From contig JBGAWP010000011.1 of NCBI GenBank assembly GCA_044227505.1, positions 424-64,423 of the forward strand: DNA of 64,000 nucleotides. The letters run 5' to 3'. How positions within the stretch are numbered: the stretch's first letter is position 1; each line of letters begins with the position of its first letter. Positions 12,739 to 27,953 of the stretch are shown one piece after another. The translations under genes and the position numbers were made by a program. Source of the DNA: Chitinophagales bacterium. GTDB lineage: Bacteria > Bacteroidota > Bacteroidia > Chitinophagales > BACL12. The notes under the pieces were generated by a model, which saw nothing but the letters and a program-made list of their open reading frames with translations, was not told the DNA's origin and did no database searches.

Positions 12739-12755
12739 TGGATTGCAAATGTAGT

Positions 12756-12863
12756 GAGTTCTGAGTTCTGAGTTCTGGGTTCTGAGTTCTGGGTTCTGAG
12801 TTCTGGGTTCGGGGTTCGGGGTTCGGGGTTCTGAGTTCGGGGTTCTGAGTTCTGGGTTCTGAA
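12756..12863. repeat. Octamer array GTTCKGRG, about 13 units
   Basis: gttctgag/gttctggg/gttcgggg units were read directly. The array starts 18 nt upstream of the radical SAM start codon. Confidence 0.95.
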
Positions 12864-12892
12864 TTATGTGGTGTGAGGCGTGAAATTTTGGT

Positions 12893-12930
12893 TAATAGTA
12901 GAGACGCAATGCATTGTGTCTCTACTATTA
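12893..12930. repeat. 38-nt near-perfect palindrome (REP-like hairpin)
   Basis: The 13-bp arms of taatagtagagac-gcaatgcattgt-gtctctactatta pair perfectly, and the centre is itself nearly palindromic. Confidence 0.85.
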
Positions 12931-13116
12931 AACTAAATTTAAACGTTTAGGATAATGATCATACCAACGATTTAGATTACGATTCTATTAGAAGGAGTTA
13001 TGAGTAGGTTCGACTTTGAAAAACGTTTTGCGCAACATGGTAGCAAAATTTTCAAAAAGGAAATCAAAGCACCAATGTTAGCAGGATCAAACTCATAACT
13101 CATTACTCATATATAA

Positions 13117-13152
13117 AAAAAACCTTCCTGAAAAACTCCAGAAAGGTTTTAA
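13117..13152 (-). terminator. Rho-independent terminator of groEL
   Basis: The minus-strand RNA aacctttctg-gagttttt-caggaaggtt is followed by a U run. Confidence 0.8.
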
Positions 13153-13197
13153 TTCTATTAAAGTATTAATTCGGAGCGATAATTTTCAGGTCTAGTT

Positions 13198-13245
13198 CCC
13201 ACTCACTAAGTCCCACTCACCCCTACTCACCACTCCCCACTCACC
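13198..13245. repeat. Array of CCACTCAC-type words abutting the groEL stop codon
   Basis: cccactcactaagtcccactcacccctactcaccactccccactcacc. The same words occur at 61755-61777 and 61975-62003. Confidence 0.85.
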
Positions 13246-13248
13246 ATC

Positions 13249-14942: not shown

Positions 14943-15251
14943 TTATAAAATTGCAAAAATGTCAGATTCGCGCATGATAAGATATTCTTTACCATCCACG
15001 CTTATTTCAGTTCCGGCATATTTTCCGTAGAGAACGGAATCGCCAACTTTAACAGTAACAGGTTCATCTTTTTTACCCGGACCGGCAGCTACTATGGTGC
15101 CTTTTTGTGGTTTTTCTTTTGCAGTGTCAGGAATTATGATTCCTCCTTTTGTAACGGTTTCTGCTTCAGCAGGTAAAACCAATACCCGATCAGCCAAAGG
15201 TTTGATCGTGATGTTTACTTTGGCCTTAGCCGTTTCTTTTGTCTTCGCCAT
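14943..15251 (-). CDS. groES: Co-chaperonin GroES
   Basis: [10 protein letters not shown]...[24 protein letters not shown]...YGKYAGTE, located immediately upstream of groEL. Confidence 0.96.
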
Positions 15252-15404
15252 ATTTGATTTTTTATTGATTAAGTGAGTTTTATATTGCTACTGCCCGCCT
15301 GTCAGATATTGTGCCATCGGGCATTTTTGCTAATTGAGGCGCAAAGGTCAGACAAAATTTCAGAAATCCTTAATTTTTGCGAAAATGACTGACATAAATG
15401 TGGT

Positions 15405-15517
15405 AAAGATTCGAAGGGAGAAGATTCGAAGATTCGAAGGGAGAAGATTCGAAGATTCGAAGGGGAAGGTTCTAAGGGGGAAAAAGGAAGGAAGGGTTGG
15501 CTAAGGTTCAAAAAGGG
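15405..15517. repeat. Composite repeat (AGATTCGAAG/GGAGA words, then GAAGGTTCTAAGGG, AAGGAAGGAAGG, AAGGTT-AAAAAGG). Copy 1 of 2 in the window.
   Basis: It aligns by eye with 23317-23432 apart from a variable central insert. Confidence 0.85.
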
Positions 15518-15575
15518 GAAACAAATTATGATTCAAAATTTCAGACCCAAATTATACTTCAACAAAAATCAATCT

Positions 15576-15642
15576 AAGTCCTATATCATTTTTCCAATGT
15601 CCTATATCAAGTCATATTTCCTATGTCCTACTTCCTATTTCC
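15576..15642. repeat. TGTCCTA/TGTCATA-type word array
   Basis: aagtcctatatca...aatgtcctatatcaagtcatatttcctatgtcctacttcctatttcc. The 17-mer gtcctacttcctatttc recurs at about 29840-29856. Confidence 0.8.
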
Positions 15643-15724
15643 GCACACAAAAAAACCCACCTTGTTTTACCAAGGCGGGATTTCAAACCTATCCGCTTTT
15701 GAGGCGAATGTTTTTAAAGGAGGA

Positions 15725-21584: not shown

Positions 21585-23213
21585 CTATTTATTTATACAT
21601 ATTTTATCAGAATAATTTTTTGATTGTAAAAGATACATTCCCGCTCCGAGTTCCGAAATGTTTAGCGTTTGAACAGCAGATATTAGTTTGGCTTGAAAAA
21701 CAATCTGGCCCATTGCATTTATTATAAATATATTCTCCTCTTCAGAAAAACTATTGGATTTGATTGTGATATAATTATTAGCGGGATTAGGGTAAATAAA
21801 CCTGTCTGACGGAATTATTGTTTCCTCCAATCCCACTTCAAATTCCGTTTCCAATTTCCAGATCTCTGCTCCCACTGCATCTACATTGCCATTTAAAATT
21901 GCCATTCCATTATAGGTGATCATGGAATAAGGATAACGCAACTCGTCGCATTCCAAAAGCTGAAAGGTGCCGTCAACAGTGCCATTGCTCTGAAAAACGG
22001 TTGTGCAGCCATTATCATCATCATAACCGCTATACACAATATTATTTCCATTGATAACCGTTGCAAAATTGGCCTCAAAGGAACCGGAAGCGAATTCAGA
22101 TAAAAATTTAGTTCCTGCATTTGTGCCATTGGTTACCCATAAACCATCATCATTGTCCGCATTATCTGCAGCAAAAAATATTTTATTTTCTGAAGGAAGA
22201 AACGCGTAATTTCCGGGAGTGAATTCTTCTCCATTTTCATCCAATAATTTTTGAGTGCCTGCAACAGTTCCATCACTGGTAAAAAGAAATTCGTCATCAC
22301 CATTATCAGCCATAAAAAACAATTGATCATTTAAAATAAAAAATTGATGTGGTTCCGAACCATCACCTTCATCCTCATTTACATTCATAAATAATTCCGT
22401 TCCGCCGGGAGTTCCATCAGTGCGCCATAATTCCTGATCATAAGGATCTCCATCACCACCGGCAAAATAAATATGATCTTCAAATTGTATGAACATATTC
22501 TTATACTCCTTTGCAATAACCCACATTTGTTTCAACAGAACGGTTCCTGCCTCAGTGCCATCGCTCTTCCACAATTCAGATAAGCCGTCTGCATTTTTGC
22601 ATCGGAAATAAATGGCATTATCAATTGCTGTAATAAATTCAGGAACGCTGCTTGAACCAATTGCCAGATCTTTGACAAGATATGTTCCGGCCTCTGTTCC
22701 ATCGCTGCGCCAGAGCTCTATATTGTTGCCTCCTCCATCGGCTGCGAAATATAAAATATCGTTCATTTCAGTGAAATATTGCGCCGACATAAATATCGAA
22801 TTTGAACAATCGCCTAAACCCGGATTTATGTCTTTTACCATATAAGTTCCTGCTTCGGTACCGTCGCTGCGCCATATCTCTGCTCCATAAACATTATCAG
22901 AAGCTCTGAAATATAAAATGTTGTTCATCACAATATGTTCGGGGCCACAACCATACACCGATTGACACATTGAATTGGCGCCGGTTCCAATATTTTTAAC
23001 CATCCAGGTTCCGGCTTCTGTTGCGTCTGTCCTCCATAATTCAATGCCATTTGAACCGTCATTTGCAGTGAAATAAATGATATCACCCATTTCAACAAAT
23101 AAACCGGGGTCGCTGTGCGCTTCACCCGGGTTAATGTCCTTAATCAATTCCAGTGTGTATTGGGCGTGCAACCTTGTAGTAACACAAAGTGCGATGAATA
23201 TTATTTTTTTCAT
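21585..23213 (-). CDS. ELWxxDGT-repeat protein with T9SS C-terminal domain (start moved to MKKIIFIAL at 23213)
   Basis: Repeated ELWRTDATEAGT / EIWRSDGTEAGTYMVKDI units. The tail is IYPNPANNYITI...GMYLLQS. The upstream 76 codons of the track ORF are translated repeat DNA. Confidence 0.85.
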   Translation of the reverse strand: MKKIIFIALCVTTRLHAQYTLELIKDINPGEAHSDPGLFVEMGDIIYFTANDGSNGIELWRTDATEAGTWMVKNIGTGANSMCQSVYGCGPEHIVMNNILYFRASDNVYGAEIWRSDGTEAGTYMVKDINPGLGDCSNSIFMSAQYFTEMNDILYFAADGGGNNIELWRSDGTEAGTYLVKDLAIGSSSVPEFITAIDNAIYFRCKNADGLSELWKSDGTEAGTVLLKQMWVIAKEYKNMFIQFEDHIYFAGGDGDPYDQELWRTDGTPGGTELFMNVNEDEGDGSEPHQFFILNDQLFFMADNGDDEFLFTSDGTVAGTQKLLDENGEEFTPGNYAFLPSENKIFFAADNADNDDGLWVTNGTNAGTKFLSEFASGSFEANFATVINGNNIVYSGYDDDNGCTTVFQSNGTVDGTFQLLECDELRYPYSMITYNGMAILNGNVDAVGAEIWKLETEFEVGLEETIIPSDRFIYPNPANNYITIKSNSFSEEENIFIINAMGQIVFQAKLISAVQTLNISELGAGMYLLQSKNYSDKICINK

Positions 23214-23316
23214 ATAAAAGGTTTGAAATTTTATACAGCAAATTGACTGTATTTTATTGAGTTTAGCAAGGAGAAAAAAGGGAGATTGTAGCGATGGGTT
23301 GAAGATTTGAGGTGTT

Positions 23317-23432
23317 AAAGATTCGAAGGGAGAAGATTCGAAGAGTTGAACCCGCCTGCTGACTGCGTCGGGCAGGGGTGAAGGTTCTAAGGGTCTAAGG
23401 AAGGAAGGTGTTGCAAGGTTGAAAAAGGAGGT
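23317..23432. repeat. Composite repeat, copy 2 (partner of 15405-15517), carrying a CCTGC..GCAGG hairpin insert
   Basis: aaagattcgaagggagaagattcgaag ... gaaggttctaaggg..aaggaaggaagg..aaggttgaaaaagg. Confidence 0.85.
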
Positions 23433-23512
23433 TCCAAGCACTAATATGCCGTTAGTGACCCTCCTAAGCGAGATCTCATGATGTATTATTTTTTAAACTC
23501 CACCGTTTGTTT

Positions 23513-23634
23513 TCCTATGTCATATGTCCTATGTCATATGTCCTATGTCATATGTCCTATGTCATATGTCATATGTCCTATGTCATATGTCCTATGTCAT
23601 ACGTCCTATGTCCTATGTCGCGCGCCTCGCGCCT
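23513..23634. repeat. Heptamer array ATGTCMT (about 15 units), then (GCGCCTC)x2
   Basis: Read directly. It lies between the divergent genes at 23213 (-) and 23687 (+). Confidence 0.95.
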
Positions 23635-23686
23635 CAATCAAATTATAATTTTTTCTATCTTTCACCAAAACACCTTACATTCGTAA

Positions 23687-26857: not shown

Positions 26858-26937
26858 GATTTATGAATTAAACACAAAGGTAAGAAATTCACAACGAATT
26901 GCCTTTTAGTCGATAGGTTTCATGACACCGCTGGTGC

Positions 26938-27690
26938 TAGCAGGGTTCTTGTCGGCCTCCGACAAAACCCTGCGGCCGGGAGTGTAATCAGTTTCATGCA
27001 TTCGGAATACTATAATAATCCAACCAATTTGTTACTTCATAAATTCCTTGTTCGCCGGTTTTATAATATTTTGCAGAGGAATGAATGTAGTCAATTGCAT
27101 TCTTAACGAGACCTGCTTTTACAGGATTATTATGCATATACCTTAATTTTTGGAGAATGAATTTGTTTGTGAAACATTCTTTGCAATCAAATGACACTTC
27201 AAAAACCTTATGAATGGAACCCTTTTTCTTTTCGACATCATTAACTGCATCTTCTAAATTTTCGAGTAGTTGAAATTGTTTCATTTTTTTTAATCGTTTT
27301 ATTATTTCATAGGCTCTAAACCGTTTCCCTTCAGCAATTAATCTATTTATCGTTTTGCTGTGACTGCTTAATTTAAGAAGTGCGTGAAGATGATTTGGCA
27401 TTATTACATAACCAAGTATAAAATTTTCTTCCTTTTTTAGTAAGTCAAACCATTTATATATATCGTCAAACAGATCTGTTTTTTCAAAAAGAGGTAACCA
27501 TTTAAAACAAGTAAATGTGAAAAAATAGGTGGTATTAATTTCTTTATGGGTTCGTTTGACTGCCATGATACGTATTAGGGTGTTCCATCCTTCGCAGGGT
27601 TTTGCTAGGATGAGTCTATTTCATTGTAAATTCAACTTTGTACAGATATTTACTGATTTTAATTAATATTTATTTTGGCAAGAACCCTGC
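26938..27690 (-). mobile_element. RAYT (REP-associated tyrosine transposase) unit bounded by REP-like inverted repeats
   Basis: AGCAGGGTTCTTG at 26938-26950 (+) matches 27678-27690 (-). CGCAGGGTTTTG lies on the minus strand within 26961-26977 and on the plus strand within 27594-27606. Confidence 0.7.
26994..27566 (-). CDS. IS200/IS605-like Y1 transposase of the RAYT type
   Basis: YFFTFTCFKWLPLF, ILGYVIMPNHLHALLKL (HUH motif), and C-terminal NPVKAGLV...Y.HSSAKYY. Confidence 0.85.
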   Translation of the reverse strand: MAVKRTHKEINTTYFFTFTCFKWLPLFEKTDLFDDIYKWFDLLKKEENFILGYVIMPNHLHALLKLSSHSKTINRLIAEGKRFRAYEIIKRLKKMKQFQLLENLEDAVNDVEKKKGSIHKVFEVSFDCKECFTNKFILQKLRYMHNNPVKAGLVKNAIDYIHSSAKYYKTGEQGIYEVTNWLDYYSIPNA

Positions 27691-27865: not shown

Positions 27866-27953
27866 ATCCTATGTCAAATTTGCATTGTCCTTTGTCCAGT
27901 CCTGTGTCCTGTGTCCTGTATCCTGTATCTTGTGTCCTGCCTCCTGTGTCCTA
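27866..27953. repeat. TGTCC / CCTGTRT heptamer array running into the rarA stop codon
   Basis: cctgtgtcctgtgtcctgtatcctgtatcttgtgtcctgcctcctgtgtccta. Confidence 0.9.

Follow-up and report, generated by a model that had tools for sequence, protein, structure and literature searches.

A purine-rich modular repeat upstream of groES in a Chitinophagales bacterium, its polarity at gene boundaries and its likeness to PF05635 cassette arms

The repeat module upstream of groES in the 64,000-nt stretch of DNA analysed here (the window; C22:424-64423 of a 4.2-Mb, 36% GC assembly in 143 contigs) and its second copy in the same window are best explained as copies of a genus-restricted, non-autonomous, non-coding mosaic repeat built of slippage-prone words. 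Both halves of the composite to which the purine-rich module (P module) belongs correspond to complementary stem arms that surround small PF05635 genes (23S-rRNA-IVS-type four-helix bundle) elsewhere in the genome, and the window copies are therefore read as gene-less cassette shells, chimeric in that their left and right arms are of different types. We consider this reading probable, with no role in groES expression indicated. In the literature searched, we found no description of the P-module family or of its link to the cassettes.

Window positions 15390-15660 and 23300-23640 were aligned with MAFFT, and the match spans the whole module. The initial annotation had matched 15405-15517 with 23317-23432 by eye; this likeness holds in the formal alignment, where the blocks AAAGATTCGAAGGGAGAAGATTCGAAG, GAAGGTTCTAA and AGGAAGGAAGG and the AAGGTT.AAAAAGG end are identical in both copies. 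A shared 27-mer occurs at 15405 and 23317 with no mismatch and at 15428 with one, and found no match in any of 100 dinucleotide-preserving shuffles of the window. Other particulars of that annotation stood as well. The copies differ in their central part, with extra GATTCGAAG words in copy 1 and the GC hairpin CCGCCTGCTGACTGCGTCGGGCAGG (23352-23376) in copy 2, and both lie upstream of minus-strand start codons. Copy 1 faces groES (14943-15251, ATG at 15251, Cpn10 E 7e-33), with groEL downstream of it; the gene below copy 2 (21585-23213, ATG at 23213) encodes a protein of 542 aa with a T9SS sorting tail. A heptamer array lies beyond each module, as had been noted. The coordinates of all parts are given in Table 1. 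In copy 2, a degenerate first word precedes the canonical start at 23317, and the central hairpin (H1), a small repeat in its own right with 16 copies in the genome, sits inside one of the short words that open the module (A words). The non-canonical core of copy 2 combines a hairpin of the CGTTAGTGAGAC... family (~23450-23480) with the second-type array leader AAACTCCACCGTTTGTTTTCC (23496-23516), and (GCGCCTC)x2 follows the array at 23621-23635.

Table 1. Parts of the two composites in the window and the adjoining groES region (positions are those of the window)
Feature	Position	Strand	Evidence
P module, copy 1	15405..15518	+	nhmmer E 4e-26, 27-mer, alignment
Copy 1 A words (AAGATTCG / AAGGGAG)	15405-15465	+	
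Copy 1 block B, AAGGTTCTAAGG	15466-15477	+	
Copy 1 block C, AAAAAGGAAGGAAGG	15481-15495	+	
Copy 1 block D, AAGGTTCAAAAAGGGG	15503-15518	+	
Copy 1 AT-rich core, short 58-nt subtype, also in C26:3935	15519..15576	+	C22_15831 vs C26_3935, 77.6% over 174 nt
Copy 1 pyrimidine-rich T-type arm: irregular head AAGTCCTATATCATTTTTCCAATGTCCTATATCAAGTC, then TTCCTAT / GTCCTAC heptamers	15577..15642	+	
groES promoter-proximal and 5′ leader region (context outside the repeat)	15252..15404	-	interspecies conservation
P module, copy 2 (degenerate first word from 23301)	23301..23432	+	nhmmer E 1.4e-13, alignment
Copy 2 core, non-canonical	23433..23513	+	sequence reading
Copy 2 T-type heptamer array, TATGTCA / TATGTCC, ~15 units	23514..23619	+	repeat score 152

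The two window copies belong to a dispersed family. An nhmmer profile built from 11 copies gave 37 matches in the genome, which were merged into 36 copies, and all 36 lie between ORFs. Along the purine-rich strand, from the outer to the inner side, the element consists of A words, block B, block C, block D, an AT-rich core and a pyrimidine-rich heptamer arm, which itself runs from an inner head to an outer tail; the composite measures 250-330 nt. The A words are 8 and 7 nt long (AAGATTCG and AAGGGAG, with the variants AAGAATCG and AAGATTTG), and one to about six of them precede the constant B-C-D blocks, giving variable internal subunits and fixed end modules. Block B is AAGGTTCTAAGG, block C is an A-run followed by GGAAGGAAGG, and block D is GTTGGTAAGGTTAAAAAAGGGG. 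The core between block D and the array measures 58 nt in the groES copy and in C26:3935, the paralogue closest to it, and ~95 nt in most others, in which the motifs TGAAAATTTTA, TAACTTTTA and AAATTTTCAATTTAAATCA recur; the short core of copy 1 holds TTCAAAATTTCAGACC, the counterpart of block 1 (TGAAAATTTTA) of the longer cores. Small GC hairpins occur in some copies as insertions at set positions: H1 (CCGCCTGCTGACCGCGTCGGGCAGG), H2 (CCTGCCTGCCGGCAGGCAGG) and H3 (GCATCCTTCGCTAAAGCTACGGATGC) have 16, 15 and 7 genome copies, of which 7, 6 and 2 are inside P modules. All three hairpins are also seen in other word-module families, e.g. CGTCATCCGCGC-H1-TTCCCCTTTT, as modules within modules.

The heptamer array is part of the element. 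Within 300 nt, a period-7 array was found on the 3′ (D) side of 27 of the 36 copies compared to two on the 5′ (A) side (Fisher p = 1e-9), and it mostly starts 50-60 nt past the end of the nhmmer match. As the genome contains 889 non-redundant period-7 arrays (192 with their midpoint in a called ORF, roughly 700 intergenic), and 32-39% of intergenic regions of at least 200-300 nt carry one, an array close to a module is unsurprising by itself. Paralogues are 74-92% identical over 170-260 nt of alignment that includes the non-repetitive core and the irregular array head, for example 77.6% over 174 nt between the groES and C26 copies and 74.5% over 259 nt between the C78 and C84 copies; for the purine modules alone the identity is 82-92%. 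Since paralogues align through module, core and array head, the composite is one inherited unit and not a chance neighbourhood. The 36 dispersed copies also bear out the initial view of a modular element rather than independent slippage events.

To place the family relative to genes, we used a simple longest-ORF caller (3417 ORFs, 87% coding), so that the gene calls are approximate. By these calls, the A end is the gene-proximal end in every copy. In 20 of 35 copies it abuts the stop codon of a co-oriented gene at a median distance of 3 nt. The first A word lies -2 to +10 nt from the stop in 15 of these 20 cases, and in three further cases an additional A word and H1 stand in front, with the hairpin beginning at the stop. 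The purine-rich strand is the coding strand within 0-38 nt of the stop in 18 of the 20 co-oriented cases, and the other two overlap the ORF end. The other 15 of 35 copies have their A end towards a start codon, at a distance of 13-300 nt (median 58 nt; Mann-Whitney p = 7e-6), and here the purine-rich strand is always the non-coding strand. Of the spacers occupied, 14 are convergent, 13 tandem and 4 divergent, compared to expected numbers of 6-7, 17 and 7-8 (p = 0.003-0.007). The initial annotation had proposed a conserved order and orientation relative to the gene, with a fixed place upstream of start codons. The order, module then array, was recovered throughout the family; the placement rule was not, as the start-facing copies are the minority in the genome-wide tabulation.

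The family was then followed into relatives with a 116-nt consensus. It is abundant in the congeneric species G002, G003 and G005, with traces in four more species of the genus, and absent from 24 genomes of other genera searched with this consensus; among 251 sampled genomes of the order, 1 of 113 genera has the P module. Many copies have been passed down at one and the same site in three to four species. As a gauge of purifying selection on orthologous copies, the identity of module and core between species was taken; it is ~0.7-0.9, similar to that of adjacent intergenic DNA and to be read against the high baseline of global alignment; paralogues are as diverged as orthologues, and recent transposition is not visible. 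When 14 module-bearing gene ends were compared with their orthologues, the stop fell at the same codon (TAA, TGA or TAG), and what came next was the module, an unrelated repeat family or ordinary sequence. Because stops are kept while modules vary, the modules turn over between species (~85% nucleotide identity) with their boundaries pinned to functional sequence.

The two window sites follow this pattern. At groES, the ~130 nt adjoining the ATG (CTGAAATTTTGTCTGACCTTTGCGCCTCAATTAGCAAAAATGCCCGATGGCACAATATCTGACAGGCGGGC; also given as CTGAAATTTTGTCTGACCTTTGCGCC...GGCACAATATCTGACAGGCGGGC) are conserved in the own genome, G014, G003, G002 and partly G004, and they sit wholly between the module and the ATG, downstream of the module. 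The module at this site carries an H3 hairpin and a different distal part in G003 and is reduced to a remnant in G002; G014 has none. Between module and ATG, a leader/promoter block on the minus strand (window 15291-15364) is conserved genus-wide. It reads CTGAAATTTTGTC..GACCTTTGCGCC...GGCACAAT(A/T)TCTGACA(A/G)GCGG and is retained by G004 and G009 as well, which are more distant; its GGCAC-N5-CTGA resembles a sigma-54 -24/-12 pair with an imperfect -12. This block may be the real heat-shock control region of groES. At copy 2, both promoter-proximal flanks are conserved in relatives. Beyond the shared junction ...GGAGATTGTAG, the P module is replaced by a GCAGTGG-type module in G002 and G003 and by unique sequence in G014; of the relatives, only G002 shares the heptamer array and its CCACCGTTTGTTTTCC leader. 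The orthologous spacers (G002:C3:511700-512520 and G003:C426:12830-13700) contain GCAGTGG heptamers, GTAACATTGGAG...TTCGAA units and several copies of the CGTTAGTGAGAC..GCGAGAGCCTCAC hairpin family, and extend up to about 740 nt compared to 473 nt in the own genome.

The link to PF05635 comes from loci at which similar arms enclose a gene. The genome has 12 PF05635 matches, nine of them above the Pfam cut-off. At the clearly read loci (C7, C66, C101:8909 and C132), word arrays upstream of the gene return as reverse complements downstream. In one of them, C132:59985-60812, the arms are P modules: two of them in inverted orientation, with a frameshifted PF05635 gene in the middle, fill the space between the stops of two convergent genes, with the A ends at the two stop codons and the D ends towards the PF05635 gene. 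This gene (C132:60240-60575) has a 1-nt deletion that leads to an early TAA in the own genome, and its G002 counterpart (G002:C3:1908008-1908357) has the same arrangement with an open frame of ~115 codons. G014 provides the empty site: the whole 0.8-kb cassette is missing, and the same two stops are separated by a 96-nt spacer with a terminator-like hairpin. A gene-less shell with inverted P arms is found at C115:11285-11700. Compared with shuffles, the C132 and C115 shells fold strongly (z -8.7 and -8.9). C132 is the only one of the 12 PF05635 loci with P modules as its arms.

The other half of the groES composite is also an arm. The array head shared by the groES and C26 copies, AAGTCCTWTATCATTTTTCCAATGTCCTATATCAAGTC, matches the right arm of the intact C7 cassette at 77-81% over 53-56 nt in blastn (E 3e-7 and 6e-10; for the groES copy 77% over 56 nt, E 3e-7), and in reverse it also matches the C7 left arm. 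Each half of the groES composite is thus an arm sequence of the cassettes; the halves follow the correct outer-to-inner order but are of two different types, which fits the absence of pairing between them. The window composites fold no better than shuffles on either strand (z +1.7, +0.5 and +0.2); as their arms are non-complementary and z is not below zero, the window copies do not themselves form hairpin shells. No ORF is present in their 58-nt and 81-nt cores, and the likeness of the cores to the cassette leader and trailer consists of short AT-rich motifs seen by eye, for which blastn gave nothing significant. T-type arms are far more widespread than the composite, with 162 nhmmer matches at about 130 loci, and a P module stands upstream of only about ten. 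The window itself contains one solo arm (27866-27953); it has the leader and head of the composites (AAATTTCCAATTTACAAAAATCAAATCCTATGTCAAATTTGCATTGTCCTTTGTCCAGTCCTGTGTCC...) without a P module upstream, and extends to the stop of a minus-strand gene. In the spacer between groEL and a radical-SAM gene (window 12755-13246), (TGAGTTC)x15 is followed by arrays of AACTCAT and of ACTCACC; the word families here are in part inverted, and the spacer is likely another shell.

Several other explanations were weighed against the cassette shells. It is extremely improbable that independent local slippage made similar word arrays at each site without a common origin. The genome does make arrays readily, as the 889 period-7 arrays (roughly 700 of them intergenic) demonstrate, but the copies share the non-repetitive blocks B, C and D, the core motifs and the array head in a fixed order and at the identity given above; slippage alone cannot yield ordered non-repetitive identity, so that this origin is refuted for practical purposes. 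The initial annotation had favoured an upstream regulatory or insulator module. In this explanation, the element (UP-element-like, a curved-DNA block or a mobile promoter) would modulate groES and the T9SS-cargo gene, and some observations point that way: the A end of both window copies lies 40-105 nt upstream of the conserved promoter-proximal region, the groES site has the module in three species (the own genome, G003 and, as a remnant, G002), and A4T4-type tracts in the core are, by eye, roughly two and four helical turns apart. However, gene ends rather than starts adjoin most copies, G014 keeps the groES promoter region without the module, and the copy 2 site in other species has a different module, as in G002 and G003, or none. 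Moreover, the promoter motif TTG-N17-21-TAnnTTT is not enriched in the cores, with 1/35 matches in the forward and 0/35 in the reverse direction compared to a 6% background. These data make a regulatory or insulator role unlikely. The module appears dispensable for groES, as judged from the orthologous sites, and its effect on the gene is most likely none or minor. It does not act as a control element specific to the chaperonin and should not be annotated as such. The word CTGAAATTTTG, common to the groES promoter region and the copy 1 core, was considered as a shared signal and rejected, as it is not start-associated genome-wide.

The main rival is a gene-boundary element acting in RNA, which we regard as rather unlikely. 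Here the purine strand would form the start of the 3′ UTR of the upstream gene, its phased AAG/GG words of 7-8 nt would be bound by a single-strand nucleic-acid-binding protein, and the effect would be on termination, on mRNA 3′-end stability or on the decoupling of neighbours; the start-facing copies would act on the non-coding strand or be by-products. All 20 co-oriented cases have the purine strand on the coding strand at or near the stop, the placement of the module at the stop is kept in orthologues despite a changed stop codon, convergent spacers are enriched (14 compared to 6-7 expected), and the bias in strand and position is shared with G-rich heptamers in Xanthomonas and Nostoc, which are mostly transcribed (PMC4692102). 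On the other hand, 15 of 35 copies face start codons, orthologous gene ends have unrelated repeat families or no module, and there is no conserved RNA structure, no Rfam match and at best weak G-quadruplex potential, with none in the window copies. A G-quadruplex in blocks C-D was rejected on the same ground: the G-quadruplex option of ViennaRNA gave -1.4 kcal/mol for the consensus and nothing for the window copies. It is very unlikely that the composite represents a gene for a small non-coding RNA, or a structured cis-RNA, that was duplicated through the genome. Its length of 250-330 nt and conserved block order would suit such a gene, as would the good TTG-N20-TAACTTTT match in the core of some G002 and G003 copies. 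Both window composites, however, fold no better than shuffles on both strands, which also disposes of pairing between purine arm and pyrimidine array; the Rfam covariance models gave no family at E <= 1 except chance miRNA-model matches on the arrays, far below gathering scores; and blocks are gained, lost and swapped freely. The match in G002 and G003 looks like an internal Bacteroidota-type promoter by eye, and this candidate was dropped because the 35 own cores show no enrichment of TTG-N17-21-TAnnTTT(G). An origin of the hairpin insert from a REP/RAYT system was likewise rejected, as the RAYT-flanking hairpin differs in sequence from H1, H2 and H3. The window has a single RAYT-like gene (26994-27566, minus strand, within 26930-27690), flanked by CAGGGTTyTTG...CAAAACCCTG hairpins; the CAGGGTT..AACCCTG hairpin is unrelated to the P module or to H1, H2 and H3.

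We thus return to the gene-less, chimeric cassette shells as the preferred reading, in which the window copies would be to the cassettes what a MITE is to the insertion sequence that left it behind. The arms would lengthen and shorten through slippage of their words, and copies would spread or be exchanged through the cassettes' own mobility, by whatever mechanism, or through recombination between arms. For the P-module family, we found neither terminal inverted repeats nor target duplications, nor a mobility enzyme. Selection may trim copies back to functional edges, that is, stop codons and promoter regions, which would explain the abutment to both; the exact stop-codon abutment could instead reflect a function. 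At many sites the element has been inherited since the common ancestor of at least three species, and elsewhere it has been gained, lost or swapped. A broader proposal, possible if doubtful, is that P modules, heptamer arms and PF05635 genes form one undescribed class of mobile cassettes that home to gene boundaries (after stops and at the outer edges of promoters), replace spacers from stop to stop and decay into recombined shells. The PF05635 four-helix-bundle protein, a relative of DGR Avd, would then be a dedicated factor, and much intergenic heptamer DNA, here and in other bacteria, would be cassette debris or working ends. If the cassette link reflects a mobility mechanism, it would account for widespread 'junk-like' bacterial DNA. 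The case supplies a testable anatomy for such questions, with its outer-to-inner polarity, stop abutment, module swaps between species and the stem link between repeat and PF05635.

Finally, the element can be compared with known systems. BOX elements of Streptococcus pneumoniae have the structure boxA-(boxB)n-boxC and form stable stem-loops. Like them, the P-module element is dispersed, intergenic, non-coding, present in tens of copies, lineage-restricted and without its own transposase, and its fixed end modules enclose internal subunits whose number varies. There is no sequence relation, and BOX elements fold stably, whereas the window copies have z of zero or above; the P-module element is further set apart by its strand asymmetry (purine-rich), its abutment to stops and its coupling to a heptamer array. 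In Xanthomonas (GGGAATC) and Nostoc (GGGGA(C/T)T), G-rich heptamers form intergenic tandem words, with the G-rich strand being the coding strand 0-50 nt from the stop or the non-coding strand upstream of ORFs, and G-quadruplex formation has been proposed for them (Rehm et al. 2015, PMC4692102). The polarity of the P module at stops and starts is identical. However, those repeats are simple arrays of one heptamer, while the P module belongs to a multi-block composite with 8- and 7-nt words and a unique core, and it has little or no G-quadruplex potential. TAACTGA heptamer direct repeats of Beggiatoaceae, cyanobacteria and a few Bacteroidetes are short single-word arrays, mostly just upstream of starts with some overlapping stops (MacGregor 2015, PMC4679880). 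They and the long SSRs of Mrazek et al. 2007, as cited in PMC4679880, resemble the present case as abundant intergenic 7-nt repeats of sporadic phylogenetic distribution; unlike the TAACTGA repeats, the P module differs from a heptamer array and does not, as a rule, lie close to a start.

Among relatives of the PF05635 cassettes, the best known are ORF-bearing intervening sequences of 23S rRNA; the IVS of Coxiella burnetii carries an S23p ORF of PF05635 and is regarded as selfish (Warrier et al. 2016, PMC4990558). Both have a PF05635 ORF between complementary arms of a long stem, and at C132 the P modules are these arms. The cassettes of the own genome, in contrast, lie between protein genes and not in rRNA helices, their arms are made of 7-8-nt words, and the window copies have no ORF and non-complementary arms. 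MITEs and REP/BIME are small non-autonomous intergenic repeats enriched at gene 3′ ends, with BIMEs being mosaics of modules (PMC3184786, PMC2817692), and the P-module element is also a small, non-autonomous intergenic filler. Unlike a MITE, it has one purine-rich and one pyrimidine-rich end without complementarity, lacks terminal inverted repeats and shows no duplication at its junctions compared to empty sites; unlike REP/BIME, it has no palindromic unit, and the REP at the RAYT-like gene of the window is unrelated to it. The element therefore differs from BOX elements and MITEs in structure and from the heptamer repeats in G-quadruplex potential, and it behaves like modular dispersed repeats of the BOX and BIME kind, with the polarity of the stop-proximal G-rich heptamers.
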